From an uncultured bacterium (GTDB taxonomy: Bacteria > Patescibacteriota > Minisyncoccia > UBA6257 > UBA9933), in contig CAJVXI010000001.1 of the NCBI GenBank assembly GCA_913009635.1, positions 2,915 to 66,914 of the forward strand: a stretch of 64,000 nucleotides of DNA. The letters run 5' to 3'. The notes below the pieces were generated by a model. The model did not search any database, was not told the origin of the DNA, and worked only from the letters and a program-made list of their open reading frames with translations. The translations under genes and the position numbers were made by a program. Below, piece by piece: positions 3,438-50,663 of the stretch. The number at the start of each line of letters is the position of its first letter. Position 1 is the first letter of the stretch.

Positions 3438-3572
3438 CTCTCAAAAATGTAAAATTTAAAAATCAAAAATCAAAATGCCAATGTAAAATTTCAAAATGAG
3501 TTAAAAAAACGAAAACAATTTTAACATTTTGATCTGTCATTTTCCATTTTGATATTTACATTTTGAATTTTT
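3438..3572. repeat. Repeat family A copy that fills the pilB-pilC gap.
   Basis: It runs from the pilB stop to the pilC ATG and has an internal imperfect palindrome. Confidence 0.8.
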
Positions 3573-4784: not shown

Positions 4785-4848
4785 TAAATTGCTAAACTGA
4801 TAAATTGTTAAACTGTTGCGCTAACGAATTGATAAAAACAATTTAACA

Positions 4849-5420: not shown

Positions 5421-6464
5421 ATGGCAAAACCCCTAAATTCTAAATCCTACCGCGCCCGACATCGCCTTGTGAAGTCAAGGCGGGCGGGTATTCTAAATTC
5501 TTTTAATAAAGGTCAATCTTTTATTGAGATTATTATTGCTTTTTTGATAGGCGCTCTTTTAATTATCGCTTCATCAAGCGCCGTTGTTTTAATAGTTAGG
5601 AATAATTTGGAATCCAAGAATAATCAAATAGCCGCCTTTTTGGTTCAAGAATTAGTTGACAATATTCAGGCAGTTTCTGAATCTGATTGGAATAGTTTTT
5701 ATAACCTTGCTCCAAAAGGCTCGAGTTCACAATATTACGTGAGTTCTACTCGCGCGATTATTAATGACGTGGAAGTTTTAACTATCAAAGAAAGGAATTA
5801 TACTCGATATTTTTCTATTGAGAATGTTAATCGTGATATTTGCGGTACCGGCGATATTAGCAGTGCCGCAACCAGTACTTGTTTGGGTGCTGAGGTTTTA
5901 GAAGACCCATCAACGCAGAAAATTACTGCTTTTGTAAATTGGGCTGGCAATCATTCAATTAGCATAGTTCAATATTTAACTCGGCACCGTGATTCTGTTT
6001 TTGCTCAGAGCAATTGGTCTGGAGGAGTTCTATCGGATGAAATAATTACTTTCTCTAATTACAGATTTTCTACGTCAACTAATATTGATTTTGCCACCAC
6101 CACTGGTTCAATAGTTTTAAGCGCGGGTCAAACAAGCGGTAATTTAACATCCAGCATTTTTGATACTCAAAGAACAGATGGAGCGGCCTTTAATGCCATT
6201 CTTTGGCAGGGCGATATAGGCGACGGAACGGTAAAATTTCGAATTGCTTCGTCAGCCACTTCCACCGATCACTGGAATTATTACGGTTGGGATGGCAGTG
6301 GAAGCACTGATTATCCGGCCAGCGGCTCTGTTGATGACGATACATCGGTTTTAATTATGCCGGAGCATCATAATAATGATAGATACGTTCGTTATAAAGT
6401 ATTTTTAAATAAAACTTCTAATAGTCCGCGAATTGACGACATAATAATTAACTGGAGCTCATAA
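5421..6464 (+). CDS. Large pilin-like protein (minor pilin). The true start is possibly the GTG near 5469.
   Basis: 'KGQSFIEIIIAFLIGALLI' is a prepilin-like signal. The long N-terminal leader includes a GC-rich hairpin and the ctaaattctaaat repeat. Confidence 0.5.
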   Translation: MAKPLNSKSYRARHRLVKSRRAGILNSFNKGQSFIEIIIAFLIGALLIIASSSAVVLIVRNNLESKNNQIAAFLVQELVDNIQAVSESDWNSFYNLAPKGSSSQYYVSSTRAIINDVEVLTIKERNYTRYFSIENVNRDICGTGDISSAATSTCLGAEVLEDPSTQKITAFVNWAGNHSISIVQYLTRHRDSVFAQSNWSGGVLSDEIITFSNYRFSTSTNIDFATTTGSIVLSAGQTSGNLTSSIFDTQRTDGAAFNAILWQGDIGDGTVKFRIASSATSTDHWNYYGWDGSGSTDYPASGSVDDDTSVLIMPEHHNNDRYVRYKVFLNKTSNSPRIDDIIINWSS

Positions 6465-6465: not shown

Positions 6466-7005
6466 ATGAAACTAAAAACTAAAAACCCCCGCCTGCGCCG
6501 AGGCTTCGGCCTTCGGCCGACGAAGTCGCCTTCGGCCGACGAAGTCGGCGGGCAGGAAAAACTAAAAGCTAATAAAGGTATAATTGCATTGCCGACAATG
6601 CTTTTAATCGGCGGGGTTATTGTGGAAATTGGAATTGCCGGACTTTTAGTTTCTTATTTTTTAATACAGAGCAATCTTGGTATTAGGTTGTCAGCCGAAG
6701 CATTGGCAGTGGCTCGGTCAGGGACCCAGGATGCTATAATTAAAATTATTCGTGATAAAAACTTTACTAGCGGTTCACCTTATTCTTTAACTGTTGGTGA
6801 ATGGTCTGCTCAAATTATTGTTTGTAAAGATTCAAGAACAATTTCCACTGCTTGTGATGACCTAGATCCTTCAAATAAGGGGAAACATGAAATTACATCT
6901 TTGGGGATAGTTCAAAAAAAACAACGTAAAATTCAAACAATTCTTAACGTTAATAGCGCAACTGGAGAAGTTAATGTAGAATCAATAGAAGAGATAGCTA
7001 TTTAA
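6466..7005 (+). CDS. PilX_N-like pilus assembly / minor pilin protein. The N-terminal 40 aa are encoded by a GC-rich tandem hairpin element.
   Basis: 'KGIIALPTMLLIGGVIV...SAEALAVARSGTQDA' resembles the PilX N-domain. Confidence 0.45.
   Translation: MKLKTKNPRLRRGFGLRPTKSPSADEVGGQEKLKANKGIIALPTMLLIGGVIVEIGIAGLLVSYFLIQSNLGIRLSAEALAVARSGTQDAIIKIIRDKNFTSGSPYSLTVGEWSAQIIVCKDSRTISTACDDLDPSNKGKHEITSLGIVQKKQRKIQTILNVNSATGEVNVESIEEIAI
6486..6556. repeat. GC-rich tandem hairpin element (2 x 'ccttcggccgacgaagtcg') inside the 5' end of the ORF.
   Basis: This is a 70 bp GC-rich palindromic segment in a 30% GC genome. A related hairpin 'gccgaaggcgtcgacttcgtc' is at 51387-51412. Confidence 0.7.
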
Positions 7006-7041: not shown

Positions 7042-8544
7042 ATGAAAATCAATTTTAAAAAAATACTTAACGCTATAAATCCGCAGCCGGCTATTGGCGG
7101 TCTTGAGATTAATAATTTAGAATTGCGATTTATTAAATTAAAAGGCAATAACCTTTCTTCTATTTCCCAAAAATTACAGCCTGGCATTATTGAAAAGGGA
7201 AAAATAAAAGATCGGGCTAATTTTATAGCAGCTCTTTCAAATCTCCATTTTCAGATTACTCGTAGAAAAAAGAAAAAAATTTACGTAATTGTCGACGTTC
7301 CCAATATTAACGTTTATGCTAAAGTCTTTAATTTACCGAGCGTTGCTTTGGGGAATCTTGAAGAAGCCGCTAAACTTAATCTTCAAATGATTTCACCGAT
7401 TGATTTTGCTGATACATATAATGATTGGCATTCGGTTGGTAATAGTGGATATAATGAGAATCAAATAGAAATTTTGGGAGCTTTGGCGCCGAAATCTATT
7501 ATAGAAGAATTTAGCAGTTCTTTGGAAGAAGCAGGTTTTGGAATAGCGGCAATTGAATTTTCTGCTTTGTCATTAATAAGATTAGCGGTTAATTTTGGGG
7601 TTGGGATTGATATTAAAAATAATTATCTTTTACTTCAGATAGGCAGTGATGGTTTGAATTTTAATATAATGAAGAACGGTAATTTGTATTTCGCGCATTT
7701 TTATTCGTGGGAAACAGACACAAAAAAACAAAAGCAAATATCTTTTTCGGATTTTAAAGAATTAATTACCAGAGAAACTCAAAAAGTATTGAATTTTTAT
7801 GAAACTCATTGGGAAGGAAGAATTAATAAAGTAATTTTAGTAAGCTCAGGACTTGTTAAAGAAACAATTAGTATGCTTTCTGAAAATTTATCACTTGAGG
7901 TTCAGGTATTAACTCTTAAGAAATTTAATAAATTATCTCCAGATTGGTATAGTGCTTTAAGCTCGGCGCTTAGAGGATTAATTCCTCGTTCTCAGGACAC
8001 TATTATTAGCTTAGCAAGCGTCGGCACTGAAGAAGGGTTTAGGCGTTATCGTGTTATTAATTTTATAAATATTTGGCGTAATATTATTTTTGCTTCGCTA
8101 ATTTTCGTTATCGTAGTTTTTGGAGCGTCCGTATGGTTGTTAATAAATACGATGGAATCAGTAAATTTATCGGACATAACTTTGTCGAATGTTTCGGAAA
8201 TCGCAGAATTAAATATACTTCAGGAAAAGGCCAAAAGTTTTAATGAAAAAGTAGAGTTAGCGTTGAAATCACAAAAAACAGGAGCTAATTGGTCTTCATT
8301 TTTTGAGAGAATTAAGGGTTTAATCGGAAATGATATTGTCTTGGAAAGAATTTTTATTCAATCCTTGGAAACTCCGGTCTTGATTAATGCTACGGCAGTT
8401 AGTCAAGAAGCTGCAATAAATTTTAAAAACATTTTAACTCAACAGTCGCAATTTTATGAAATAAATTTGCCTTTATCAAATATTATTTCTTCAACTGAAG
8501 GACCGGTTAAATTCAGTATTAGCTTTAAGATAAGGGGGTTATAA
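7042..8544 (+). CDS. PilM-like actin-fold protein fused to a PilN-like TM/periplasmic segment.
   Basis: A 330-aa cytoplasmic domain is followed by the TM helix 'IIFASLIFVIVVFGASVWLLI' and a ~140-aa tail. The gene sits in the T4P cluster. Confidence 0.45.
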   Translation: MKINFKKILNAINPQPAIGGLEINNLELRFIKLKGNNLSSISQKLQPGIIEKGKIKDRANFIAALSNLHFQITRRKKKKIYVIVDVPNINVYAKVFNLPSVALGNLEEAAKLNLQMISPIDFADTYNDWHSVGNSGYNENQIEILGALAPKSIIEEFSSSLEEAGFGIAAIEFSALSLIRLAVNFGVGIDIKNNYLLLQIGSDGLNFNIMKNGNLYFAHFYSWETDTKKQKQISFSDFKELITRETQKVLNFYETHWEGRINKVILVSSGLVKETISMLSENLSLEVQVLTLKKFNKLSPDWYSALSSALRGLIPRSQDTIISLASVGTEEGFRRYRVINFINIWRNIIFASLIFVIVVFGASVWLLINTMESVNLSDITLSNVSEIAELNILQEKAKSFNEKVELALKSQKTGANWSSFFERIKGLIGNDIVLERIFIQSLETPVLINATAVSQEAAINFKNILTQQSQFYEINLPLSNIISSTEGPVKFSISFKIRGL

Positions 8545-8792
8545 AAATCTTTTTTTCAAAAAAATCTTTTCCCGCCAGCCAACAATAGCGCCTAACAATT
8601 TTTCGTTCATCAGCCGTTGTCACCTCGTTCGCTTTACGATTTTCTGGCGGCTTAAAGGACGCTTCGCTCCCGTCAAAAAATCTACTCACTTCGGAACAAC
8701 GCGTTTGAATTCGCTCAAAACATTAGGCGCTATTATAGTAACAGGCTGGCCACAAAAAAGATTTTTGCTTTTCTTTGGCTACAAAAAGATTT
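8545..8792. repeat. MITE-like or structured element with ~22-bp terminal inverted repeats 'AAAATCTTTTCCCGCCAGCC ... GGCTGGCCACAAAAAAGATTTT'.
   Basis: The termini are conserved with the element at 31249-31470. The inner sequences have diverged but are homologous, and each has a nested inverted repeat. Confidence 0.6.
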
Positions 8793-9356
8793 TTATTTAT
8801 TGGTGGTTGTGTTGAAGAGCTGCGCTTGGGCAGATTGAAAGACCTTGTTAAAAATCGTGAGGTCTTTTTTTGTTATTTTTTTGAGTACAAACTCTCCGGC
8901 TTTCGCTCTTCGAGCTCTTGATACTTGTTTCGGCCTAATACCTATGCGTAAACGCCAGAAATTTTTTGTTTTCAAGGATTTAATTATTGACTCTATGCCT
9001 TTGTGTCCAGCTGAACCGCGTCCATAAGAAAATTTATATTTTTCTAATTCAATATCCGAATCATCATGAACAATTAATATTTCTTTAGGGTCAATTTTAT
9101 TATCTTTAGTGGAGAAATATTTTATTGCTGATAGTACTGCTTTTCCAGATTCATTCATAAAGACAGATGATTTTATGACATGAATTATGAATTGTGAATC
9201 ATGAATTTTGAATTTTGATGCAATAAATAATTTATGTTTTATATTCCAAGCTTCATGTTCTATGAGCCATGATAAAAAAAGTTGCCCCACGTTATGATAA
9301 GTTAAGATGTGTTGGAAATCGGGGTTCCCAAGGCCAATAATCAGCTTGATTTTCAT
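8793..9356 (-). CDS. pth: Peptidyl-tRNA hydrolase.
   Basis: 'IIGLGNPDFQHILTYHNVGQ' is the Pth N-terminal motif. Confidence 0.85.
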   Translation of the reverse strand: MKIKLIIGLGNPDFQHILTYHNVGQLFLSWLIEHEAWNIKHKLFIASKFKIHDSQFIIHVIKSSVFMNESGKAVLSAIKYFSTKDNKIDPKEILIVHDDSDIELEKYKFSYGRGSAGHKGIESIIKSLKTKNFWRLRIGIRPKQVSRARRAKAGEFVLKKITKKDLTIFNKVFQSAQAQLFNTTTNK

Positions 9357-9398: not shown

Positions 9399-9947
9399 AT
9401 GAAATCTTTTCTTTATTCAATTTGGGAGATTATTGAAGTTGTTTTAATAGCTATTATCACAGTAATTGTTGTTAGAAATTTTTTAATCCAGCCATTTTTA
9501 GTTAGTGGCGCGAGTATGGAGCCAAATTTTTCAAATGGAGATTATCTCTTGGTTGACGAGATTACTTATCGTTTTCGTAAGCCGCAGAGAGGAGAAGTTA
9601 TTGTTTTTTATTACCCCGGCGATGAAGTTACATATTATATTAAAAGAATTATAGGTCTTCCAGGCGAACGAATTAACATTAAAAACGGGCAGATTACGAT
9701 TTACAGTAATGATTATTCCAGTGAATTGGTTCTTGAAGAATATTATTTGCCGCTTGATATTAAAACTTCTGGAGATAAAGAAATTGCCATTAGTGATAAT
9801 GAGTATTTTGTTTTAGGAGATAATCGTTATTATAGTTTTGATTCGCGTAGTTGGGGTCCTCTTAATGAAGATGAAATTATTGGTTTAGTGCGTTTGCGCC
9901 TTTGGCCATTTAATAATGTGATGGCATTTGAGAAACCAGTTTATTAA
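9399..9947 (+). CDS. lepB: Signal peptidase I.
   Basis: The boxes 'GASMEPNF', 'YIKRIIGLPGERI' and 'VLGDNRYYSFDSRSWGP' are present. Confidence 0.85.
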   Translation: MKSFLYSIWEIIEVVLIAIITVIVVRNFLIQPFLVSGASMEPNFSNGDYLLVDEITYRFRKPQRGEVIVFYYPGDEVTYYIKRIIGLPGERINIKNGQITIYSNDYSSELVLEEYYLPLDIKTSGDKEIAISDNEYFVLGDNRYYSFDSRSWGPLNEDEIIGLVRLRLWPFNNVMAFEKPVY

Positions 9948-10077
9948 AAATTAAAAATGTAAATATCAAAATGGAAAATGACAATGTAAAATTTCAAAAT
10001 GAGTTAAAAAAACGGAAATAATTTCAATATTTTGATTTGTCATTTTGATTTTTGATTTTTTAATTTTACATTTTATT
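9948..10077. repeat. Repeat family A copy (palindromic 'aatgtaaaatttcaaaatgag...tgtcattttg' element).
   Basis: About 85% identical by eye to 3438-3572. Related copies are at 50571-50663, 54637-54746 and 59230-59339. Confidence 0.8.
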
Positions 10078-11504: not shown

Positions 11505-11909
11505 ATGCCTTGTCTATTTTGTAAAATTATAAATAAAGAAATACAGGCAGATTTAATATATAATGATGATGACACTATTGGAATTTTAGATATTCATCCT
11601 GTAGCACCTGGACATACGATGATAATTCCAAAATTTCACAGCGAGAATATTTTGGACTTACCGGATGATAAAATTGGAGCAGTTTTTTCGGCGGTTAAAA
11701 AAATCACCGAAATTCTTGATAAATCTTTGAATCCCGATGGTTTTACTATAGGTATCAATCATGGTCGGGTAAGCGGACAAGCGGTTGATCATCTTCATAT
11801 CCATATTATTCCAAGATTTAAAAATGACAAAGGAGGGTCGATACATACCATAATTCATAATCCTCCTAAGGAGTCGTTGGAGGAAATAAAGAAGAAAATT
11901 AAAGCGTAA
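11505..11909 (+). CDS. HIT family protein.
   Basis: The histidine triad 'VDHLHIHIIPR' is present. Confidence 0.85.
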   Translation: MPCLFCKIINKEIQADLIYNDDDTIGILDIHPVAPGHTMIIPKFHSENILDLPDDKIGAVFSAVKKITEILDKSLNPDGFTIGINHGRVSGQAVDHLHIHIIPRFKNDKGGSIHTIIHNPPKESLEEIKKKIKA

Positions 11910-12112
11910 TGTCAATATACGAATGCGTACTAATGATACGAATAAATAAATACTAATATATGATGCCAATATACTAATGGATACTAATGATACGAATAAA
12001 TACTAATTCAATTCGTATGTATTAGTATAATTAGTATGAATTCGTATATTAGCATTTCACATAAGTATAATTAGCATGAATTAGTATATTAGTATTTCAT
12101 TAAGCGAAGCGT
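11904..12112. repeat. Repeat family C copy, long form. It contains the HIT stop codon and abuts the rpsU ATG.
   Basis: The element runs 'gcgtaatgycaatatacgaatgcgtactaatgatacg ... cattaagcgaagcg' and has imperfect TIRs. Confidence 0.85.
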
Positions 12113-12888: not shown

Positions 12889-13446
12889 ATGACGAATAAA
12901 ATATTGGTTGTGAGCTTAGAAAAAGGATTTGAAAAATTTGAGAAAGAAATAAAAAAAACAGTATTTAAAGCGTTAAGAATTTTAAAAAAGAAAAACGTTT
13001 CAGTGGAGATTTATTTGGTTGGAAGCCCAAAAATGCGGTTTTTAAACAAAAAATTTCGTGGTAAAGATAAAACAGCTGATATATTAAGTTTTGAAGAGCC
13101 CAAAAATGGCTTTATTTATCCTTCGTCATCTGCCACTGGCGGAGGCGAATCAAAATTTAAGAGAATTGGTGAAATATACCTCAATCTTGATATATCGCAG
13201 ATAAACGTAGATGAAACGCAGATAAATCCCCCACATATAAATATATGTGGGATAAACGCAAATAAAAAAATCAGCGAAAATCTGCGTAAAAATCTGCGTG
13301 GATCAGTACTTTTAGTGCATGGCTTGCTTCATCTTTTTGGCTATCATCATAATAAGAAAAATGATAAAATTAGAATGGATAAAGCGGAGCAGAAATTACT
13401 CCTTCAAATTACAGATTCCAAACACCAAGCACCAAATAACAAATAA
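12889..13446 (+). CDS. ybeY: rRNA maturation endoribonuclease YbeY carrying an in-frame ~105-bp palindromic insertion. Its C-terminal codons come from a repeat family E copy.
   Basis: The zinc motif 'VHGLLHLFGYHH' is present. The insertion at 13196-13301 encodes 'ISQINVDETQINPPHINICGINANKKISENLRKNLRG', which is not part of the conserved YbeY fold. Confidence 0.7.
   Translation: MTNKILVVSLEKGFEKFEKEIKKTVFKALRILKKKNVSVEIYLVGSPKMRFLNKKFRGKDKTADILSFEEPKNGFIYPSSSATGGGESKFKRIGEIYLNLDISQINVDETQINPPHINICGINANKKISENLRKNLRGSVLLVHGLLHLFGYHHNKKNDKIRMDKAEQKLLLQITDSKHQAPNNK
13196..13301. repeat. Palindromic mini-element (family F, 'acgcagataaa' units around 'cccccacatataaatatatgtggg') inserted in-frame in ybeY.
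   Basis: Left arm 'acgcagataaa' x2 and right arm 'aaatctgcgt' x2. A related unit sits in secF at 20698-20748. Confidence 0.75.
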
Positions 13447-24048: not shown

Positions 24049-24570
24049 ATGGTCACATTTTTTTCTATTCTAAAAATTATCATTACTGTTTTATTAGCCG
24101 GACTTTTAACCGGTATCTTGGTTTTATTTGTAAAATCGTTTCATTTTGGGCCTAAAATAAGAATTTTTCATGCAATGAATTTTGCTAAGGAGTCTAAGGT
24201 TTCTGATAGCCGATATCAAGAAATTATGCGTCATCGGGAAATTATTCGTAGAAAATGGGAAAAATTGTTAGAGAAAATAAAATCCGGCGATGAACGAGAT
24301 TTACGTTTGGCAATTATTGAGGCTGACAATTTAGTTGATGAGATTTTAATTAGACATGGCTATTCGGGGAAAGATATGGGAGAGCGTTTAAAATCTATTC
24401 ATCCCAGCGAAATTGAAAATCTTGACGATTTATGGAAAGCGCATAAAATTAGGAATAGAATAGCTCATGAGTCGGAATTTCATATTGCTCAAGTAGAAGC
24501 TAAAAAAATAATTACTGTTTATCATAAGACATTAAAAGATTTAACGTCAAAAGATTTGGAGCTTGTGTAA
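24049..24570 (+). CDS. Hypothetical small membrane-anchored protein.
   Basis: One N-terminal TM helix. Its stop codon lies in the repeat family C copy. Confidence 0.35.
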   Translation: MVTFFSILKIIITVLLAGLLTGILVLFVKSFHFGPKIRIFHAMNFAKESKVSDSRYQEIMRHREIIRRKWEKLLEKIKSGDERDLRLAIIEADNLVDEILIRHGYSGKDMGERLKSIHPSEIENLDDLWKAHKIRNRIAHESEFHIAQVEAKKIITVYHKTLKDLTSKDLELV

Positions 24571-24774
24571 AGCGTAATGCCAATATACGAATGCGTACTA
24601 ATGATACAAATAAATAAATACTAATATATGATGCCAATATACTAATGGATACTAATGATACAAATAAATACTAATTCGTATGTATTAGTATAATTAGCAT
24701 GAATTCGTATATTAGCATTTCACATAAGTATAATTAGCATGAATTAGTATATTAGCATTACATTAAGCGAAGCA
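24571..24774. repeat. Repeat family C copy, long form.
   Basis: Nearly identical to 11904-12112. It ends 'cattaagcgaagcaATG'. Confidence 0.85.
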
Positions 24775-26214
24775 ATGAGAGAAGGTAAAATCCAAATAAT
24801 TAAATACGCTCCGCCTCCACCGGATTTACCAATCTATGGTCAGGTAGATCCAAATGAAACTTCTTTTTTTGGCAGGACCAATTACGAGGCAGGTTTAGAA
24901 TCAAAAAGATTCATTTTTGGCATTAAAAGACGAGATAGGCGTCGCCATTTTTATGTTGTTGGTAAATCAGGGGTTGGTAAATCAAAACTTTTAGAATTAT
25001 TAATTCGTCAGGACATTACTTATGGACATGGTTTGTGTCTGATGGACCCGCACGGTGATGTTATTGCTAATATTCTTGATTTTATTCCCGAGCATAGAAT
25101 AAAAGACGTAGTTTTAATTGACCCTTCGGATACTCAATGGCCGGTTTCTTTTAATCCATTGATGAATATTACTCCTGAACTGAAGCATCAAGTTACTCAA
25201 GGTTTGATTGAGGTAATGGAAAAACAGTTTGGCGCTAATTGGACTCCACGGTTGGAGCATGTTTTTAGATTTACATGTTTGGCTTTATTGGATTATCCAG
25301 GTGCAACAATGAGAGGGATGATTTTAATGTTAACTGACAGGAATTATCGTCACAAAGTTATTGAATATATTGAAGATGAAATGGTTAAGCGGTTCTGGGC
25401 GATTGAATTCGCTGATTGGTCAGAGAAATTTGATACAGACGCTATTATCCCTTTAGTAAATAAATTAGGACAATTTCTTTCAAATCCTTTACTTCATTAT
25501 ATTTTTGGCCAAAAAGACAATAAAGTTGATATTCAAAAGATAATGAATGAAGGAAAAATTCTTTTAATTAATTTGTCTAAAGGAAAGTTAGGAGAAGAAA
25601 ATTCCAGTTTTTTCGGTTCAATGTTTATTACTAAAATTCATCAGGCAGGCATGGCAAGAGCTGATATATCCGAAGAAGAGCGAAAGGATTTTTATCTGTA
25701 TGTTGATGAGTTTCATAATGTAGTTACTGATACTTTTATCAATGTTATAACTGAAGCGAGAAAATACGGTATTTGCGCAACTTTAGCTCATCAATATCGA
25801 GCCCAGCTTCCTATACAGATTATGGCAACTATTTTGGGTAATGTCGCTAATATTGTTATTTTTAGAGTTGGCGGAGATGATGCCAAGTTTTTTGAGAAAG
25901 AAATGACACCTGTTTTTAAAGATAAAGATATGATTAATCTGGGAATGCAGGAATTTTATATCAAGATGACTATTGACGGTGAAACTCATGATCCTTTTTC
26001 AGCTGAAACTTTAAAAATTCTTTCACCTACGCATCCTTCTTATAAAAATGAAATTATTGAATATAATCACAAAACGTATTGTTTGCCATTAGAAGAAGTA
26101 AAAAGAAAAATTACTGAAGCAGAAGGATTAACTGTACAGCAGCAGTCAAAGGTCGCAGAAACCACTCCTGGCGAGTCTCGTTCTGATGAACGGAAAGAAG
26201 AGCCAATCGTGTAA
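24775..26214 (+). CDS. TraG/TraD/VirD4-like (type IV coupling protein family) P-loop ATPase, soluble form without N-terminal TM helices.
   Basis: Walker A 'VGKSGVGKSKLL', Walker B 'FYLYVDEFHN', then 'EARKYGICATLAHQYRAQL', which resembles the VirD4 'DEF.N...E..R.YG....QS..QL' region. It is a paralogue of 28852-30501. Confidence 0.5.
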   Translation: MREGKIQIIKYAPPPPDLPIYGQVDPNETSFFGRTNYEAGLESKRFIFGIKRRDRRRHFYVVGKSGVGKSKLLELLIRQDITYGHGLCLMDPHGDVIANILDFIPEHRIKDVVLIDPSDTQWPVSFNPLMNITPELKHQVTQGLIEVMEKQFGANWTPRLEHVFRFTCLALLDYPGATMRGMILMLTDRNYRHKVIEYIEDEMVKRFWAIEFADWSEKFDTDAIIPLVNKLGQFLSNPLLHYIFGQKDNKVDIQKIMNEGKILLINLSKGKLGEENSSFFGSMFITKIHQAGMARADISEEERKDFYLYVDEFHNVVTDTFINVITEARKYGICATLAHQYRAQLPIQIMATILGNVANIVIFRVGGDDAKFFEKEMTPVFKDKDMINLGMQEFYIKMTIDGETHDPFSAETLKILSPTHPSYKNEIIEYNHKTYCLPLEEVKRKITEAEGLTVQQQSKVAETTPGESRSDERKEEPIV

Positions 26215-28851: not shown

Positions 28852-30501
28852 TTATCCTTCCAACGCTTTCTTAATACTTTCTTTTAGTCCCTCAATATCT
28901 GGGGATTTTTTTTCAGATGGTTCTTTTTTATATTGCCTTTCTTGTTGAGTCGGTTCTTGCGTTTTTGGCAATTCTTTTAAAGAGATAAATTTTTTTGGTT
29001 TGTTCTGATTTTGCTGAGGAGTTTCTTCTTTTTTAGCATTTTTTTCTTCTACGGTTTTCAGAATTGAAGTTTGTCTTTTTTGCGGTTCAAATTCTATGCC
29101 TATATCTCTTAAACTTTCAGCGTATTTAAATCTTGGCTCGGCTTCTTTTCGTGAAAATCTTTTTTTATCTTTATCTGGGAATTTACCTCTGGACATTGAT
29201 ATTCTAGAGCCCATAAATCCGCTCCATTGATTAATGTCCGCCTCTACTTTTTCTCGTGGCTGAGAATAACGCTCTCTTGATATTTTAATTACTTTTTCTT
29301 TATTATCGCTATGAGTAGCCATTGCAAACGGCGGTAAAGTAGAGGCAGAAAAAGGACGACTGGTTATTCCGTCAACCATTAATTTAAGATAGATATTATA
29401 GTTTGGCAGATTAATTATGTCTTGAGCATTAAATTCCGGCTCAAATTCTTTTTCAAGAAATTCCGCATCAGCTGCTCCGACTCTAAAAACGAGCATTGTG
29501 CCGACATTGCCAAAAATAGCATCTCTAACCTTAGTTGACGTTTCGGTTAATAATTGGCCAACGTATTGGTGGGCAATAGTAATGTTAAGCCGATATTTCC
29601 TGGCTTCTGAAAGAATGCCGGCAAATGACTCTGTAACAAAGTTTTGGAATTCATCGACATATAAGTAAAAATCTTTTCTTTCTGTTTCCTGAATTCTTAC
29701 TCTTTCCATTGCCGCTAATTGAATTTTAGTAATAAGCATTGCTCCTAAAAGCGCGGAATTATCTTCGCCGATTCTTCCTTTTGACACGTTAATAAGCAGA
29801 ATTTTTTCTTCATTCATTATTTTTTGGATATTAATAGTGCTTTTGGTTTGTCCTACCACGTTTCTAATAAGAGGCGTTGATAAAAATTGGCCTACTTTAT
29901 TTTGAATAGGCACAATAGCTTCATTTCTGAATTGGTCTCGCCAGCCCTCATATTCGTGAATCCAAAATGATTTAACAATTGGGTCTTTGATATTAGCGAC
30001 TATTTGTTGACGGTAATCTTTATCAACTAAAATTTTAGGAACACCCAAGAGAGTAGTACCTGGAGTGTCAAGAAGAGCAAGTATGCAATTGCTTAAAATA
30101 TATTCCATTCGCGCTGACCAAACTCCAGCCCAAATTTTAGTAAAAATTCCCATTAAATCCGAGACAACCAAATGTTTATATTTAGGGTCAGGAACTTCTA
30201 AAATATTAAAACCAATAGGATAATCCATATCAGCCGGATTAAAATAAATAACATCATTAATCCGGTTTTCAGGTATTTTATCAATAATACTTTCAACAAA
30301 TTCACCATGCGGGTCAACAATACAGATACCTTTGCCGTTCATAACGTCTTGGATGGCTAAATTAGCCAATAGAACACTTTTTCCGGTTCCGGTTTTTCCG
30401 ATGACGTATATATGCTGCCTGCGGTCAGCTTGTTTGATGCCAAAAGTTTTTTCTTGATTCCTAAAGTTTGTTTTAGCGAATAGAGTTATCTGATTCGTCA
30501 T
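28852..30501 (-). CDS. TraG/TraD/VirD4-like P-loop ATPase, paralogue of 24775-26214, with a K/E-rich C-terminal tail.
   Basis: 'HIYVIGKTGTGKSVLL', 'FYLYVDEFQNF' and 'EARKYRLNITIAHQYVGQL'. Roughly 45% identical by eye to the + strand copy. Confidence 0.5.
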   Translation of the reverse strand: MTNQITLFAKTNFRNQEKTFGIKQADRRQHIYVIGKTGTGKSVLLANLAIQDVMNGKGICIVDPHGEFVESIIDKIPENRINDVIYFNPADMDYPIGFNILEVPDPKYKHLVVSDLMGIFTKIWAGVWSARMEYILSNCILALLDTPGTTLLGVPKILVDKDYRQQIVANIKDPIVKSFWIHEYEGWRDQFRNEAIVPIQNKVGQFLSTPLIRNVVGQTKSTINIQKIMNEEKILLINVSKGRIGEDNSALLGAMLITKIQLAAMERVRIQETERKDFYLYVDEFQNFVTESFAGILSEARKYRLNITIAHQYVGQLLTETSTKVRDAIFGNVGTMLVFRVGAADAEFLEKEFEPEFNAQDIINLPNYNIYLKLMVDGITSRPFSASTLPPFAMATHSDNKEKVIKISRERYSQPREKVEADINQWSGFMGSRISMSRGKFPDKDKKRFSRKEAEPRFKYAESLRDIGIEFEPQKRQTSILKTVEEKNAKKEETPQQNQNKPKKFISLKELPKTQEPTQQERQYKKEPSEKKSPDIEGLKESIKKALEG

Positions 30502-30564
30502 ATTGGCATAATTATACCATAAATTTAGTTGTTTACAATTAACGGGAAAATGGCTATATTATAA

Positions 30565-30675
30565 AGCGTGATATCAATATACGAATGCGTACTAATGATA
30601 CGAATAAATACTAATTCGTATCCATTAGTATAATTAGCATGAATTAGTATATTAGCATTACATTAAGCGAAACGT
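30565..30675. repeat. Repeat family C copy, short form.
   Basis: It ends 'cattaagcgaaacgtATG' at efp. Confidence 0.8.
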
Positions 30676-31248
30676 ATGTTGTCTTATACCGATTTAAAAT
30701 CAGGTGTTTATATAGTGGTTGATTCACAGCCTTATTTAGTGGTGGAGTCAGAGTTTGTGAGAATGCAGCAAAGAAAGCCAGTAATGAAAACGAAAATTAA
30801 GAATTTAATAACTGGCAAAACAGCAGAGAGGTCATTTCAGCCAAGTGACAATATTGAAGAAGCTGAACTTGAAAAGATGAAAGTAATTTTCATTTACGAG
30901 AGCCGCGGAGAATACTGGTTTAGCGAGCTAAACAATCCAAAGAATAGATTTTTATTAAAAGAAGAAGAAATTGGCGAATTAGCCAAGTTTTTAAAGCCAA
31001 ATTTGGAAATTACAGCATTAAAATTCAAAGACAAAATTATTAACATTGAATTGCCAATTAAGGTTGACTATAAAGTAGTTGAAGCGCCGCCTGCCATTAA
31101 GGGTGATACTGCGCAGGGCGGAACTAAAACCGCGGTTATTGAAACTGGTGTTAAAATTACTGTTCCGCTTTTTATTCAAGAAGAAGATATAATTCGTATT
31201 AATACTCAAACTGGTGAGTATGCGGAGAGAGTAGAGAAGGGATCGTAG
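30676..31248 (+). CDS. efp: Elongation factor P.
   Basis: The N-terminal KOW-like domain has 'KPGKG'-region analogues and the three-domain length is correct. Confidence 0.85.
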   Translation: MLSYTDLKSGVYIVVDSQPYLVVESEFVRMQQRKPVMKTKIKNLITGKTAERSFQPSDNIEEAELEKMKVIFIYESRGEYWFSELNNPKNRFLLKEEEIGELAKFLKPNLEITALKFKDKIINIELPIKVDYKVVEAPPAIKGDTAQGGTKTAVIETGVKITVPLFIQEEDIIRINTQTGEYAERVEKGS

Positions 31249-31470
31249 AAAATCTTTTCTTGCCAGCCAAGCTAAGTAAAAATCTTTTCTCGTTCGTAGT
31301 GCTACACCAAATGAAAATCTTACTTCGCTCATAACTAGAAAATACCACCCTGCTACGCGGGTACCCGGTATTTTCTCTATTCGCTCAGAGATTTTCTATT
31401 CGGCTCCGCAATACTCTCTGTGAAAAGATTTTTGCTTAGTTAGTTAACGGGCTGGCTACAAAAAGATTTT
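31249..31470. repeat. MITE-like or structured element, second copy, with termini 'AAAATCTTTTCTTGCCAGCC ... GGCTGGCTACAAAAAGATTTT'.
   Basis: The termini match 8545-8792. It has the nested inverted repeat 'gctaagtaaaaatcttttc ... gaaaagatttttgcttagtt'. Confidence 0.6.
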
Positions 31471-31502
31471 CTACTAGTCTTAATTGAGAAAAATAAGAAA
31501 AT

Positions 31503-31530
31503 AAAAAAGCCGGCTTTAGAGGTAGCCGGC
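31503..31530 (-). terminator. Rho-independent terminator-like hairpin on the minus strand (gccggc..gccggc followed by a T-run on the - strand).
   Basis: On the + strand it reads 'aaaaaagccggctttagaggtagccggc'. Confidence 0.4.
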
Positions 31531-31800
31531 AACCTTTAATTTGTGGTGCTTACGCATTTCTTCTTCGTTCGAAGCACCAATTAACGAAGAATATCTCTGT
31601 CTAGTATACTCGCACGGCCGAGAAACGCCATTGTGCGATAATCTATATCTTTTGTATTGGATAACTCGCTGAGCGATTATTCAAGCAATTTCAGTGTACT
31701 ATTAATAGTATACACATATTAAAACATTTGTCAATAGTGCGCCAAAACATCTCATTTTTAGCCCAAATAAATCCCACACTTTTCATTCGAGAGGTGCGGG

Positions 31801-31840
31801 ATAAACGGCTCACACGGCGTGTGAGCCGTTTATTTTCTAA
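31801..31840 (+). terminator. Perfect hairpin 'aaacggctcacacggcgtgtgagccgttt' followed by a T-run. An identical hairpin is at 42080-42112.
   Basis: A 12-bp GC-containing stem is followed by 'attttc'. No + strand CDS lies upstream within 550 bp. Confidence 0.55.
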
Positions 31841-31980
31841 ATTTTCAATTTATCATAATTTAACGTAATCAAATTACGTTAAATTATTTAATACAAAGCG
31901 TCATTTGAATGACACTTTATTTATTGGTTAAGTTTGATAATTTGAGAAAAAAAATTTCTGATGATATAGTTTAGTTAATT

Positions 31981-33782: not shown

Positions 33783-35252
33783 ATGCGCATATATGATATT
33801 GCTTTTTATGTAGTTGTTTTCTTTTTGCTTGGAATATTGGCAGCGAGTTTAAAAATAGATTTTATAATTATTGTATTGGCTGCTGTTTTGGTGGCAGCCA
33901 TATTTTTATTTTCCACCTATTTTCAATCTTACGAGGTTCAACCTCGTAAGATTGAGAGAAAGCTTTTTTGGTTTGCTGGCTTGTCTTTATTTATTATTGT
34001 CGGCGCTCTCTATTATTTTGTGGATGATTATCGTTCCAGAAATATCAATATTACTTTTGATCAGAAAATAAGTTTTGAGGGGATAGTGACAAGAAATCCT
34101 GCGAGAGGCAATCAACAAAAATTAACAATTGAACTTCAACTGCCTTATTCTGGAAGAGTTTTGGTAAAACTTAAAAATTATCCGAGTTTTAATTATGGAG
34201 ATTTAATAAGTTTTGAAGGACAAATCAAAAAACCAGAAAAGGGCTCATATGCCAATTATTTAGCCAAGGATAAAATTTTCGGTACCATCAGTTATCCAAA
34301 AACTAATTTTATTAGTAGTGGTCACGGTTCAAAAATTAAATCAACACTTTTTTCTTTGAAAGAAAGAACAGTCAGTAATTTTCAGAAGGTTTTACCCGCG
34401 GAAAACGCCGCTTTTTTATCCGGAATTACTTTAGGTGAACGAGCCGAATTTTCCAAAGAATTCAAGGAAGCAATGAGTAAAAGCGGTACTACTCATCTGG
34501 TGGCGCTTTCAGGATACAATATTACTATTTTAGTGGTTGCTATCGCTTATATTTTGAGTTCTTTTGTATCACGCCGTTTAGTTTTTTGGTTAACGCTTCT
34601 TATAATAATTGGTTTTGTAATAATGACAGGTGCCGAGGCCTCAGTAGTGCGAGCAGCTGTAATGGGTGGAATTATTCTGTTAGCAAAGCGTGCTAACCGA
34701 CTTTATAGTTTTCGCAATGCTATTGCTATCGCTGGTTTTTTAATGGTTTTGGAAAATCCAAAAGTTTTGAGTTTTGATATTGGTTTTCAGCTCTCTTTTA
34801 TGGCTTTATTGGGTATAGTTTATTTGCGGCCGGCTATTCAAAAATTCTTTAAATTTAGCGAAAAGCCAGGATTTCTTTTATGGAAAGAAAATTTTTTAAC
34901 TACTTTCTCAGCTCAGTTATTTGTTTTGCCGCTGCTTGTTTTGTATTTTGGCAATTTTTCTCCAATATCTTTATTGTCCAATATTTTAATTCTTAGCGTT
35001 ATTCCCTTAACAATGACTTTGGGTTTTATTATCGGGTTCTTGGGATTTATTCATTATTATTTTTCCCTGATTTTTGGATGGCTCACCAACTTACTTTTAT
35101 CTTATGAGACATTTGTAATTAAGTTTTTGGGAGAGTTGAATATTTTACAAATTAATTCATTAAGTGTTCCTTTGGTAATTACTTATTATTTTATTTTAAT
35201 CGTTTTTATTTTGTATGCTCGCCGCCTTCCGAAGCCGCGCCAAAATTTTTAA
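33783..35252 (+). CDS. comEC: ComEC/Rec2 competence (DNA internalisation) channel domain protein.
   Basis: DUF4131-like N-terminal domain plus the competence-domain motif 'GTTHLVALSGYNITIL'. It has multiple TM helices. Confidence 0.8.
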   Translation: MRIYDIAFYVVVFFLLGILAASLKIDFIIIVLAAVLVAAIFLFSTYFQSYEVQPRKIERKLFWFAGLSLFIIVGALYYFVDDYRSRNINITFDQKISFEGIVTRNPARGNQQKLTIELQLPYSGRVLVKLKNYPSFNYGDLISFEGQIKKPEKGSYANYLAKDKIFGTISYPKTNFISSGHGSKIKSTLFSLKERTVSNFQKVLPAENAAFLSGITLGERAEFSKEFKEAMSKSGTTHLVALSGYNITILVVAIAYILSSFVSRRLVFWLTLLIIIGFVIMTGAEASVVRAAVMGGIILLAKRANRLYSFRNAIAIAGFLMVLENPKVLSFDIGFQLSFMALLGIVYLRPAIQKFFKFSEKPGFLLWKENFLTTFSAQLFVLPLLVLYFGNFSPISLLSNILILSVIPLTMTLGFIIGFLGFIHYYFSLIFGWLTNLLLSYETFVIKFLGELNILQINSLSVPLVITYYFILIVFILYARRLPKPRQNF

Positions 35253-40171: not shown

Positions 40172-40204
40172 GCGGCTATTGACTCTTTATTTTTATGTTA
40201 TAAT

Positions 40205-40357
40205 TATAGCGAGTTCCAGTTAGTGATTTCTCGGATCAAATCGGATTTTCAGGGAGAACAACAGCGCTTTGGCTCTTGGGCTAAAGTTGAGTTCACCCAC
40301 TTGGCGAATAGCCGAGAGAATCCAACGGCTGGAACTCATGAAAAAGCAGTGGAATGA
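40205..40357 (+). ncRNA. Candidate structured RNA or leader. It has the long-range pairing 'gagttccag...ctggaactc', nested 'ttctcgg/ccgagaa' pairing and an intrinsic terminator hairpin 'aaaaagcagtggaatgactgcttttt'.
   Basis: The pairing was read by eye. It lies in a 330-bp gap upstream of rpmB. No family was recognised. Confidence 0.3.
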
Positions 40358-40503
40358 CTGCTTTTTCGTTTCTAAACTTACCGAAGGATTGATACTTCGG
40401 AAATGTGCTCAGTATCAATCTCCTCGAGTCTGAGTCTCGGAGTCGAAGATCTGAGCTTACCGAAGGATTGATATTTTATAAATTATTTGTAATACTTATT
40501 GTT

Positions 40504-41749: not shown

Positions 41750-42076
41750 ATGAAATACTTAATTTTAATTATTGCCGGGATTTTGGGGATTTGGGTTGGC
41801 AGGAAGTTGGCGATGTGCAGGACGATGAATAAAGGTAGTACGGTTGGCAAGGGAAATTTAATGGAATTGAATGAAGCGAAAAAAATTGCCAAAGAGAAAA
41901 ACAAAGAGAAAATACTTGAATTATTAAAAGAAAAGGACCAAATCACAAATAACGATATTGAAAGCGCCTTAGGTGTTTCTGACGCGACAGCTACTCGTTA
42001 TTTTGAGGAATTAGAACAAGAGGGAAAGATAATCCAAAAAGGAGAAGGAAGAGGAGTTTATTATATAAAAACTTAA
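41750..42076 (+). CDS. Winged-helix DNA-binding protein, possibly with an N-terminal TM helix.
   Basis: The C-terminal wHTH is 'KILELLKEKDQITNNDIESALGVSDATATRYFEELEQEGKIIQKG'. Confidence 0.4.
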   Translation: MKYLILIIAGILGIWVGRKLAMCRTMNKGSTVGKGNLMELNEAKKIAKEKNKEKILELLKEKDQITNNDIESALGVSDATATRYFEELEQEGKIIQKGEGRGVYYIKT

Positions 42077-42077
42077 T

Positions 42078-42118
42078 AAATAAACGGCTCACACGGCGTG
42101 TGAGCCGTTTATTGTGGG
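42078..42118 (+). terminator. Hairpin 'aaacggctcacacggcgtgtgagccgttt' plus 'attgtgggtaattttt'. It is identical to the hairpin at 31801-31840.
   Basis: It sits immediately 3' of the CDS that ends at 42076. Confidence 0.5.
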
Positions 42119-45423: not shown

Positions 45424-47565
45424 ATGCGAATGTATCCATTAGAAAAATACAGAGACATAGGCATTATTGCTCATATTGATGCTGGAAAAACTACCGTTAC
45501 AGAACGGGTTCTTTTTTATACTGGAATTTCTCATAAAATTGGTGAAGTTCATGAAGGTCAGGCAATTATGGATTGGATGGAACAAGAACGAGAGCGCGGT
45601 ATTACTATTACTTCAGCTGCTACAACTTGTTTTTGGGTTTCATCTCGTTATTTAGAAGGCGTTGATGATGATAAAGAAAAACATAAAATTCGTGAAGTTA
45701 ATGAGCATCGAGTTAATATTATTGATACACCAGGCCATGTTGATTTTACAGTTGAGGTTGAGAGATCGTTACGTGTTTTAGACGGCGGAGTAGTCGTTTT
45801 TGATGGAGTTGCCGGAGTAGAACCGCAATCAGAAACAGTTTGGCATCAGGCGGATAAGTATAAGGTACCGAGAATTTGTTTTATTAATAAACTTGATCGA
45901 ATAGGAGCGAGTTTTGAAAATTCTCTCCTTTCTATTCAAGAGCGCCTTAATTCTAATGCTGTAGCAGTCCAAATACCAATTGGTTCAGAGGCTAATTTTG
46001 AAGGCGTTATTGATTTAATTCAACTCAAGGCATTTAATTTTGATGGAGAGAGGGGTGAAAAAATTATCAAAAAAGACATTCCAGAGAATCTTAAAGAAGA
46101 AGTTGAAAAATACAGGCATATTTTAGTTGAAAAAATTGTTGAGCATGATGAAAATTTAATGACAAAATATTTAGATGGCAAGGAAGTTTCTGAAGACGAA
46201 CTCCGTTCTGTTTTAAGGAGAGCTACTATAGATAATAAATTAATTCCGGTGCTTTGCGGTTCAGCTTTAAAAAATAAAGGAGTTCAATTGGTGCTTGACG
46301 CGGTTTTGGATTATTTGCCGTCTCCTTTGGATATATCGGAATCAAAAACAATAAAAGGAATTGATCCGAAAACCGACAAAGAAATTGTACGTCAACCAAA
46401 AGATGATGAGCCGTTTACAGCTTTGGCTTTTAAAATTGCTACTGATCCTTTTGTGGGAAGTTTAACTTATTTTAGAATTTATAGCGGTGCTCTTAAACGC
46501 GGAAGTTATATTTTAAATTCATCTAAAGGAAAACAGGAACGGATAGGTAGAATTGTTAGAATGCACGCTGACAAAAGAGAAGAGGTTGAAGAAATGTACG
46601 CAGGCGACCTTGGAGCTATTGTTGGATTAAAAGGAACTACTACCGGCGATACGCTTTGCGATATTGATAACCAAATTATTTTAGAAAAAATTATTTTTCC
46701 TGAACCGGTAATTTCTATTAGAATTGAACCAAAAACAAAAGCTGACCAAGAAAAAATGGGAATAGCAATGAGACGTTTAGCTGAGGAAGATCCGACTTTT
46801 AAAGTAGGAGGTGATCCTGATACTGGTGAAACAATTATTTCCGGAATGGGAGAGCTTCATTTAGAAATTCTTGTTGATAGAATGAAAAGAGAGTTTAGTG
46901 TTGAGGCCAATATCGGTCGTCCACAAGTTGCTTATAGAGAAACAATTAAGGGAACTGCTGAAGCTGAAGGAAAATATATTCGTCAGTCTGGCGGTCGCGG
47001 TCAATATGGTCATGTTTGGCTAAAAGTAAATACATTAGAAATGGGCAAAGGATTTATTTTTGTCAATAAAATAAAAGGTGGAATTATTCCCCAAGAATTT
47101 ATTCCTGCCATTGAAAAAGGCGTTAAAGAAGCAACAAATAAAGGGGTTTTAGCCGGATATCCCGTAACTGATATTGAAGTGACTCTTTATGACGGTTCTT
47201 TTCATGATGTTGATTCTTCAGAAGCAGCTTTCAAGATTGCCGGTTCAATGGCTTTTCAAGAAGCAACCAGAAGAGCTAAGCCAGTTATTTTAGAGCCAGT
47301 AATGAAGATTCAAGTAATTGCGCCAGCGGAATTTCTTGGTGATATTACAGGTGATCTTAATGCTAAGCGCGCTAAAATTGAATCAATGGGAGACAGAGGC
47401 AATATAAAAATTATTGATTCTAAGGTTCCTTTAGCTGAAATGTTTGGTTACGCAACAAAATTACGTTCTATGACTCAGGGTCGAGGAAGTTTTTCAATGG
47501 AATTTGATCATTATGAAGCAGTGCCGAATAATATTGCTCAGATGATAATAGAAGGGAAAAAGTAG
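45424..47565 (+). CDS. fusA: Elongation factor G.
   Basis: G-domain 'AHIDAGKTT' and 'DTPGHVDF', at full length. Confidence 0.95.
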
Positions 47566-47656
47566 AATAGCCACTAGCCACTAGTGATTAGGGTTTAGGG
47601 TTTTAATTTAAGTATTTTAACCCTAGTGGCTAAACCCTAGTGGCTAATCACTAAAA
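47566..47656. repeat. Repeat family B copy.
   Basis: It fills the gap from the fusA stop to the ATG at 47657. Confidence 0.85.
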
Positions 47657-49946: not shown

Positions 49947-50570
49947 ATGGCGTTTATATTAGGTAAAAAACTGAATATGTCTCAGATTTGGAAAGACGAT
50001 AAAGTGATTCCTGTTACGGCTGTTAAGGCCGGACCAATAACTATAACTCAAATTAGAATAGAAGAAAAAGATGGTTATGAAGCAATGCAAGTTGGATTTG
50101 ACGCGACAAAAAAGAAATTAAATAAGCCGATGAAAGGACATTTAAAAGATTTAGGGAATTTCAGATATCTAAAAGAATTTAAAAGTGAACAGGAGAAAAA
50201 GTATAAAGTAGGTGATATTCTGGATGTTAGTCAGTTTCAAGAAGGTGATAAAGTAAAAGTTAGCGGTTTAAATAAAGGCAGAGGATTTCAAGGGGTAGTC
50301 AAGCGACATGGTTTTCATGGTGGACCCAAGAGTCATGGCCAAAAAGATCGTTTGCGGGCGCCGGGCTCAATTGGTTCTACTGATCCGCAAAGAGTAATAC
50401 CAGGTAAGAAAATGGCCGGTCATATGGGTCAAGAAAGAATAGCGATAAAAAATTTGAAAATAGTTAATATTGATAAAGAGAACAACATTTTAATGATTAA
50501 AGGCGCGGTGCCTGGAATGAGAGGGACACTTTTAGAAATTCAAAATGTAAAAATTAAAAATTCAAAATGA
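49947..50570 (+). CDS. rplC: 50S ribosomal protein L3.
   Basis: The L3 pattern is present ('GKKLNMSQIW', 'KGRGFQGVVKRHGF'). Confidence 0.95.
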   Translation: MAFILGKKLNMSQIWKDDKVIPVTAVKAGPITITQIRIEEKDGYEAMQVGFDATKKKLNKPMKGHLKDLGNFRYLKEFKSEQEKKYKVGDILDVSQFQEGDKVKVSGLNKGRGFQGVVKRHGFHGGPKSHGQKDRLRAPGSIGSTDPQRVIPGKKMAGHMGQERIAIKNLKIVNIDKENNILMIKGAVPGMRGTLLEIQNVKIKNSK

Positions 50571-50663
50571 CAAATCAAAATGTTAAAATTGTTTCCGTTC
50601 GTTTTAATCCATTTTGAAATTTTACACTGTCATTTTCCATTTTGATATTTACATTTTACATTT
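50571..50663. repeat. Repeat family A copy that fills the rplC-rplD gap.
   Basis: '...aatgttaaaattgtttccgttcgttttaat...cactgtcattttccattttgatatttacattttacatttATG'. Confidence 0.8.

Follow-up and report, generated by a model that had tools for sequence, protein, structure and literature searches.

Correia elements and ERIC/IRU sequences are co-transcribed as long hairpins that RNase III can process, with altered mRNA stability, and we know of no enzyme that mobilizes them. The Patescibacteria, also called the Candidate Phyla Radiation (CPR), have streamlined genomes of ~1 Mb and are usually described as poor in mobile DNA. Here, we analyzed a 64,000-nt stretch of DNA (the window; 33% GC; contig CAJVXI010000001.1 of assembly GCA_913009635.1, positions 2,915 to 66,914) from a Paceibacteria/Wolfebacteria-like Patescibacteria metagenome-assembled genome (MAG). 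It contains two palindromic elements, el1 and el2, one behind a PilM-like gene and the other behind efp. The balance of the evidence tips toward both belonging to a family of palindromic insertion elements that is specific to Patescibacteria, non-coding, and rod-forming, i.e., an "orphan" hairpin repeat. The family has apparently been undescribed until now: searches of the literature on miniature inverted-repeat transposable elements (MITEs) or palindromic elements in Patescibacteria gave no description of such elements.

Both elements carry interrupted terminal inverted repeats of the form AAAATCTTTTC-yy-GCCAGCC and GGCTGGC-yac-AAAAAGATTTT, and both fold as long rods (fold z-scores of the two, -4.5 and -8.9). 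The 20-nt arm pattern matches the window twice against 0.23 matches expected, even when 3 mismatches are allowed, and AAAAATCTTTT occurs 9 times against an expected 1.7. The 5' arm pattern was then scanned against one genome per species, 118 8-kb loci were fetched, and a true copy was taken to be one with the partner arm 160-220 nt downstream of the 5' arm. Most matches were chance, one-armed occurrences in unrelated phyla; a conserved one-armed site in Prochlorococcus was discarded when checked for its partner. All copies with both arms came from Patescibacteria MAGs: Wolfebacteria (including one MAG with matches on four contigs), Portnoybacteria, Paceibacteria, and the unclassified "Patescibacteria group". 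A two-armed pattern scan of metagenomes supplied further copies. At least 5 copies were present in one Wolfebacteria MAG and 2 in each of several others. Every copy folds as a rod of 180-250 nt, and arms of 19-20 nt are identical between distant lineages.

Within these arms, at least four types of interior were distinguished. Type A comprises el2, L071a, and L044; L071a, from a groundwater MAG of different GC content, is 89% identical to el2, loops included. Type B comprises seven or eight copies with the conserved apical motif GCGAACTCAACC-hairpin-GGGATTCAAACAGCGC, type C comprises L003, L093, and L099, and type D comprises L130, L136, and L141. The nearest relatives of el1 are L071b and L073, which have the apical loop GNCGCTTCGCTCCCG in common with it; its apical motif GACGCTTCGCTCCCGTC also occurs in both. 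A covariance model (R1) built from type-B copies alone, without any sequence from the window, matched el2 end to end at 31273-31438 (69.6 bits, E = 1.7e-16) and el1 at 8555-8771 (35 bits, E = 3e-7), with the conserved loop motifs at homologous positions in both matches.

Known families did not account for the elements. Rfam gave no match to the window and 12 of the loci at gathering score, and in E-value mode on both elements (E <= 10) it gave only short chance matches at the element edges; a tRNA/tmRNA scan called none. Resemblances of interior motifs to SRP RNA, 6S RNA, and T-loops were dropped for want of a model match. An arm-pattern scan of viral contigs returned 16 matches, all one-armed and apparently in coding sequence, thus yielding no copies, and blastn of el2 against phage and plasmid collections found no match.

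Covariation was counted on the type-B set only, since a MAFFT alignment of all subtypes misaligned the nested 3' arms and an alignment that included el1 misplaced it. In the type-B alignment, 91% of cells were paired, and 20 of 50 pairs had changed on both sides, compared with 8.2 +/- 2.0 in shuffled alignments (none of 500 reached the observed value) and with 4-7 in controls in which pairing partners were slid. The stems of individual copies held 1036 Watson-Crick pairs, 14 isolated G:U pairs, and 19 isolated A:C pairs; between related copies there were 34 double compensations, 17 single changes to top-strand G:U, and 12 to A:C. An RNA transcribed from the top strand should tolerate G:U but not A:C. 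The stems are nearly pure Watson-Crick, and no such strand-specific wobble signal was seen, which argues against a top-strand RNA and favors upkeep of the hairpin at the DNA level.

Comparison of orthologous sites showed that the elements come and go. The spacer between efp and mnmA measures 733 bp in the window. In relatives at 81% efp identity it measures 30 bp, and at 77% the two genes overlap. A 90% relative has an element at the identical efp site; its arms are the same, but its interior is of type C and does not align with el2. The site between the PilM-like gene and pth is filled only in the window's lineage, and a relative with 60% Pth identity has no element there. The elements occupy sites immediately 3' of stop codons and in the spacers of convergent genes. 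Ten copies are oriented like the gene upstream of them and 7 the opposite way, and two copies of a single MAG, L020 and L095, are 95% identical yet lie one sense and the other antisense to its operon. Neither locus nor orientation is thus conserved, and truncated, nested, and clustered copies are common. As for the window sequence itself, el2 is present unaltered in 2 independent assemblies, and proteins of NCBI/ENA MAG assemblies match the products of efp and pth at 100% identity, with one source listing the Pth protein under "Candidatus Wolfebacteria bacterium." Taken together, the results on orthologous sites, orientation, nesting, and Watson-Crick pairing favor an insertion-prone palindromic DNA element over a dedicated RNA gene.

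The unit of the family is ~170-210 bp long, bounded by AAAATCTTTTC...GAAAAGATTTT, mostly with GCCAGCC/GGCTGGC as a second GC clamp; inside it, covarying stems alternate with pyrimidine-rich, G-poor loops that bear (Y)TCGCTC on one strand only. Since model R1 matches the inner arms of el2, el2 is a complete unit nested within a second "shell" of arms. L071a and L044 are nested in the same way, and the linker stem between unit and shell shows compensation (GCTAAGT/GCTTAGT in el2, CAAAGG/CCTTTG in L071a). Such "Russian-doll" copies result from units that inserted into, or were duplicated within, one another, and el1 is a unit lying in the remnant of another pair of arms (Table 1).

An earlier note on this DNA, made from the sequence (the original prediction), had placed two elements directly after the stop codons of a PilMN-like gene (PilM-like here) and of efp, each with a second, nested inverted repeat; direct reading of the sequence confirmed both points. 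Its measurements needed revision. What it took for a conserved 22-bp terminal inverted repeat is 10 + 7 bp, split by an asymmetric loop. Its bounds for el1 (8545/8792) enclose a real element, but they belong to the outer, partial arms (8543-8557/8777-8794), which are additional to el1's own matching pair (8561-8580 and 8744-8766). Interior identity, given as 60-70%, was measured at 52% (58% overall), about what shuffled sequence gives (49.7 +/- 1.9). Homology of the interiors, as the note had held, still finds support in the covariance model from foreign copies, which matches both.

Table 1. Window coordinates of el1, el2, and the genes they adjoin.
Feature	Position	Strand	Remarks
PilM-like gene	7042-8544		Weak match to Pfam PilM_2; stop TAA at 8542-8544; convergent with pth
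el1, full extent	8543-8794		Makes up the whole spacer between the PilM-like gene and pth
el1 outermost 5' arm remnant	8543-8557	+	AAAAATCTTTTTTTC; overlaps final 2 bases of the PilM-like gene's TAA
el1 5' arm	8558-8580	+	A-run, AAAATCTTTTC (8561-8571), CC loop, GCCAGCC (8574-8580)
el1 nested stem, 5' half	8587-8595	+	AGCGCCTAA; partner 8723-8731
el1 interior rod	8596-8722	+	Pyrimidine-rich loops; TTCGCTC at 8663-8669 and 8710-8716
el1 nested stem, 3' half	8723-8731	+	TTAGGCGCT; partner 8587-8595
el1 3' arm	8744-8766	+	GGCTGGC (8744-8750), CAC, AAAAAAGATTTTT
el1 outermost 3' arm remnant	8777-8794	+	GGCTACAAAAAGATTTTT; 2-nt overlap with pth stop codon (minus strand)
pth	8793-9356	-	Pfam 9e-37; stop at 8793-8795
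efp stop codon (TAG)	31246-31248		el2 arm begins immediately 3'
el2, full extent	31245-31474		
el2 outer shell, 5' arm	31245-31268	+	GTAG (31245-31248, includes efp TAG; pairs with CTAC 31471-31474, lengthening the stem), AAAATCTTTTC (31249-31259), TT, GCCAGCC (31262-31268)
el2 nested repeat, 5' half	31271-31289		GCTAAGT + AAAAATCTTTTC; pairs with 31422-31440
el2 linker stem, 5' half	31271-31277	+	GCTAAGT; partner 31434-31440
el2 inner complete element	31278-31433	+	Own arms AAAAATCTTTTC and GAAAAGATTTTT; TTCGCTC at 31324-31330 and 31380-31386
el2 apical hairpin	31348-31361		CCCTGCTACGCGGG; within the inner element
el2 nested repeat, 3' half	31422-31440		GAAAAGATTTTT + GCTTAGT; pairs with 31271-31289
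el2 linker stem, 3' half	31434-31440	+	GCTTAGT; partner 31271-31277
el2 outer shell, 3' arm	31450-31474	+	GGCTGGC (31450-31456), TAC, AAAAAGATTTT (31460-31470), CTAC

The elements evidently spread as DNA into the few sites that a compact genome tolerates, i.e., after stop codons and between convergent genes, and a related hairpin module can also insert in frame inside a gene. We propose that spread proceeds via a folded, single-stranded (top-strand) intermediate whose conserved loops and arms would be recognized by a protein, and that it would not involve a classical cut-and-paste transposase that makes target duplications. Once in place, the rod would be co-transcribed with the upstream gene to give a long hairpin in the 3' untranslated region (UTR), whose most likely effects on the host may be protection of 3' ends, RNase III processing, or insulation between neighboring transcription units.

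Several observations weigh against this proposal. No mobilizing enzyme was found: no arm pair encloses a transposase in the 118 8-kb loci, and none of the 38 window genes that were scanned (positions 27 to 49139) had a transposase, RAYT, reverse-transcriptase, or Nop domain. A consistent target-site duplication is absent, the mean best flanking direct repeat being 2.7 bp against 2.17 +/- 0.32 for mismatched flanks, and no pair of filled and empty alleles that would fix the insertion boundaries was seen in very close strains. The stems covary past the conserved arms, extending 3-6 bp beyond them with bases that differ by copy (GTAG/CTAC, CAG/CTG, AGAAT/ATTCT, CAAT/ATTG). Among the copies with tandem gene neighbors, 8 of 10 have the sense orientation and lie 0-16 nt 3' of stop codons. 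The conserved, asymmetric loop and apical motifs, e.g., GCGAACTCAACC-hairpin-GGGATTCAAACAGCGC of type B, look like the protein-binding or tertiary motifs of functional RNAs. The arms are not good canonical terminators: a terminator consensus scan called neither element, and yAC-AAAAAG lies between the GC clamp and the T-run, where an intrinsic terminator needs a U-tract directly after its GC-rich stem. Finally, the in-frame insertion in a gene (see below) involves a different interior module, the type C core, and not the family with AAAATCTTTTC arms.

The asymmetry of the loops is pronounced. All 17 occurrences of TCGCTC, in 9 of 12 non-redundant interiors, are on the top strand, and the bottom strand has none; the rest of the window shows no enrichment of this motif. 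Of the unpaired positions, 5.7% are G and 71% C/U, and model R1 scores the top strand from ~20 to >180 bits above the bottom strand. The motifs stand opposite each other across internal loops. In a top-strand fold, they would flank a GC core with Y·Y mismatches; on the bottom strand, the facing motifs would form tandem G·A pairs, because of which the bottom fold is the more stable one in 16 of 17 copies. Since such asymmetry would be pointless in a purely double-stranded palindrome, we infer that one folded single strand, either RNA or single-stranded DNA, is recognized.

If that strand were RNA, the copies could belong to a genuine structured non-coding RNA (ncRNA) family, acting in cis within 3' UTRs or in trans, transcribed from the top strand and multiplied by duplication, whose pyrimidine loops bind a Patescibacteria protein; this is possible, if clearly less probable than an insertion element. 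Significant stem covariation combined with conserved loops and apical motifs is what such a family would show, as are the extreme strand asymmetry, the likeness of el2 and L071a in different hosts down to their loops, and the predominantly sense placement of tandem-context copies just after stop codons, and it would call for neither target duplication nor transposase. Against this, orthologous sites are empty or hold a different type, the near-identical L020 and L095 face opposite ways relative to their operons, copies are nested or truncated, top-strand G:U is not in excess in the near-pure Watson-Crick stems, and the bottom strand usually has the more stable fold; nor was a conserved promoter or terminator seen in the elements or a relative found in Rfam.

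More doubtful still is a new class of mobile structured nucleic acid, in which the rod would be recognized as single-stranded RNA or DNA by a putative Patescibacteria protein, and the same fold would both propagate the element and act on host transcripts. The features proposed for recognition are (Y)UCGCUC and, in type B, AACUCAACC/GGGAUUCAAACA, together with the arms. If true, this would be a bacterial analogue of a short interspersed element (SINE) or of a viroid-like rod, in genomes deemed nearly free of mobile DNA.

It is improbable that the elements are classical MITEs of the terminal-inverted-repeat (TIR) type, i.e., deletion derivatives of an insertion sequence (IS) that a DDE transposase, bound to the arms, would mobilize in trans. 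Their terminal inverted repeats are kept across lineages around differing interiors, and copies are dispersed, variably present, and found in both orientations, as in such MITEs; one of 20 copies (the short copy L015) is flanked by the 8-bp direct repeat TTGATTAA, and AT/AT flanks on many copies are compatible with a 2-bp duplication. Several flanks (AC/GT, CAG/CTG, GTAG/CTAC), however, are complementary rather than direct, and no duplication is consistent. The interior stems are kept by compensatory change, which a transposase does not require. Transposases were missing from the scanned window genes as well as from between arm pairs: the sole candidate for a composite transposon, inverted arms 1.4 kb apart at L099, was rejected, since the gene enclosed is that of the HtpX protease (htpX). 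With no fixed target-site duplication, no transposase in the fetched loci or the scanned window genes, and no Rfam match, the elements do not look like ordinary MITEs.

The original prediction had offered "a MITE or a novel structured RNA family." Covariation and the many copies bear this out in part, while an ordinary MITE and a dedicated ncRNA gene fit poorly. It would have been abandoned had there been no additional copies and no covariation; many copies exist in Patescibacteria, and two in every five type-B pairs changed on both sides. Its other outcome, an ordinary MITE identified by a 2-bp target-site duplication and a transposase, did not materialize, with no consistent duplication and with no transposase among the scanned window genes or beside the copies. 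Its argument that conserved stems around diverged interiors suggest function was partly right, in that conserved, strand-asymmetric loop motifs do exist.

It is very improbable that el1 and el2 are non-homologous, non-mobile hairpins, serving as bidirectional terminators or insulators, that evolved locally and look alike only through convergence of A/T-rich arms. Although el1 occupies a full convergent spacer, its arms end in T-runs on both strands, and 26 of the 44 window spacers of >= 60 nt fold strongly (z < -3), this explanation is largely refuted by the matches of the foreign-copy covariance model, and it does not accord with arms identical across distant lineages, with loop motifs at homologous positions, with the el2/L071a identity, or with a terminator scan that calls neither element. 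Scarcely credible is a stem-loop guide-RNA array of the TIGR-Tas type, or another RNA-guided CPR system: TIGR-Tas systems occur in Parcubacteria and some of their arrays are palindromic stems with conserved loop motifs, but the family is defined by box C/D motifs that flank dual spacers in tandem units beside a Nop-domain Tas gene (PMC12045711), and it was rejected on these defining features, the elements having no box C (RUGAUGA) or box D (CUGA) motifs, neither a tandem array nor paired 8-12 nt spacers (copies are single and scattered), and no Nop-domain gene among the window genes scanned.

The in-frame insertion of a related module was found in an iscS-like cysteine desulfurase gene of L007, the relative with 77% efp identity. 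This gene contains two long in-frame hairpins (7332-7482 and 7700-7815), the first of which is a GC-rich homologue of the type C core and coincides with a ~44-residue gap (query residues 86-135) relative to solved cysteine desulfurases. No copy with AAAATCTTTTC arms was seen inside a gene. The type C core itself is a ~140-nt module that consists of GGAACC, a hairpin with the loop UCCAGCG, a stem with GACCAAGC, and then GCGGGAUGUUC. It was observed at L068 3532-3705, L063 6371-6500, L065 6778-6993, L044 1671-1788, L031 6133-6216, L003 1236-1435, and L093 1248-1444; it is common to Paceibacteria and Saccharibacteria, with or without AAAATCTTTTC arms, shows compensatory changes, and has no Rfam match. 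In the window, strong hairpins lie inside ybeY (13190-13310), the Wzy_C-domain gene (985-1115), comEC (~33920-33965), and the start of the gene at 6466-7005 (6485-6560), and YbeY, FtsA, the RNR N-domain, and NDK have extra residues relative to Pfam profiles. This suggests that in-frame hairpin insertions occur in the window's genome as well.

Other palindromic repeats were also observed. At least 6 more intergenic families, built on short reiterated words (e.g., AATTTCT, AGCCACTAG/TTAGGGT, TACGAATGCGTACTAATGATAC), occur 3-5 times each and often occupy an entire spacer; their sites include 3438-3572, 9946-10074, 11902-12110, 24570-24778, 30511-30718, 47557-47654, 50536-50664, 51927-52024, 54621-54749, 55586-55683, 56051-56151, 58195-58403, and 59207-59335. 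One Wolfebacteria MAG has a GC-rich palindrome of 20 nt, CCTGCCTGCCGGCAGGCAGG, which, with its variants, is inserted at differing positions inside other hairpin elements (L070 ~4785-4825, L099 ~1706-1725, L031 ~6170-6190) and looks like another mobile hairpin of much smaller size. Two further spacer segments of the window are unusually structured and relatively GC-rich: 40172-40404 (z = -7.2, 42% GC), upstream of a 94-aa open reading frame (ORF), and 31731-31900, with perfect 18-bp hairpins found again at 42068-42112.

On the minus strand downstream of el2 (31509-31734), a near-consensus promoter, TTGACA-16-TATACT (31734-31707), faces a strong terminator (31530-31509). A transcript of ~190 nt is possible, and no convincing small ORF was seen there; in L003, the equivalent spacer apparently holds a small membrane-protein ORF with a Shine-Dalgarno site, as judged by eye. 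The window is also rich in DNA-uptake and transfer machinery, with coupling-ATPase genes, type IV pilus genes, and comEC. Two TrwB/TraG-like coupling-ATPase paralogues (24775-26214 and 28852-30501) lie 4 kb apart in opposite orientation, with inverted repeat arms at 25526-25660/29700-29834. A gene of the "23S rRNA intervening-sequence protein" family (PF05635, 4e-15) is located at 1288-1686, flanked by an O-antigen-ligase-like (Wzy_C-domain) gene and a pilus ATPase gene.

On a small scale, the window shows the opposite of the mobile-DNA-poor picture of Patescibacteria, with hairpin repeats in most of its spacers. The el1/el2 family is common to Wolfebacteria, Portnoybacteria, and other Paceibacteria, with near-invariant arms, and related hairpins lie in frame in housekeeping genes. 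If confirmed genome-wide, the family could serve as a marker for recent DNA exchange between uncultured epibionts, would explain many of the "insertions" in CPR proteins and long 3' UTR hairpins, and would offer, in its arms and TCGCTC loops, a defined bait for the recognizing protein. Even as an orphan palindromic repeat and nothing more, it would help annotation, since such rods break assemblies and may be misread as ncRNA genes or terminators.

The closest analogues of the family appear to be the Rickettsia palindromic elements (RPEs), Neisseria Correia elements, enterobacterial ERIC, and REP, a likeness of behavior and architecture by which we do not claim membership. Like RPEs, the elements are multi-copy, intergenic hairpin repeats (roughly 100-200 bp in RPEs) of a reduced genome, with no identified transposase and no regular target duplication, and the related type C module may parallel RPEs in its in-frame insertion into the iscS-like gene of L007, as may the hairpins inside ybeY, the Wzy_C-domain gene, and comEC of the window. 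They differ in belonging to another phylum and in that the family with arms was itself not seen in genes. To our knowledge, RPEs are not known for nested units, for an arm "shell" around varied interiors, or for strongly strand-asymmetric loops. With Correia and ERIC/IRU, the elements share the architecture of imperfect palindromes (~100-170 bp in those families) whose inverted ends are conserved, and they likewise occur in intergenic DNA in both orientations. The contiguous 26-bp TIRs and TA duplication of Correia elements contrast with the split 10 + 7 bp arms and the absence of a fixed duplication seen here; a further difference is that the el1/el2 family spans phylum-level diversity and has several interior types.

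REP/BIME repeats with their RAYT (Y1/HUH) enzymes offer a parallel for hairpins recognized as single strands and leaving no target duplication. REP has a strand-specific 5' tetranucleotide; here, GTAG precedes only el2, L003, and L071b (3 of 20 copies) and is not general to the family. REPs are also far shorter (20-40 nt, compared with 170-250 nt), and the scan of window genes turned up no RAYT gene. TIR-type MITEs such as RUP, Nezha, and bcr1 are likewise short, non-coding, dispersed, and variably present, with terminal inverted repeats, but the el1/el2 family has no fixed target-site duplication and no partner IS in the fetched loci, and its whole interior is kept paired. Rods of 6S RNA resemble the elements as ~200-nt hairpins closed by their 5' and 3' ends, with conserved internal loops; the elements differ in having no Rfam match and in being multi-copy, non-syntenic, nested, and present in both orientations. 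The el1/el2 family is thus one of bacterial palindromic repeat elements, of a known general sort, and is itself new. Its unusual feature is the presence of strand-specific conserved loops in nested, modular rods, which leaves some slight room for the more novel reading of a mobile structured nucleic acid.

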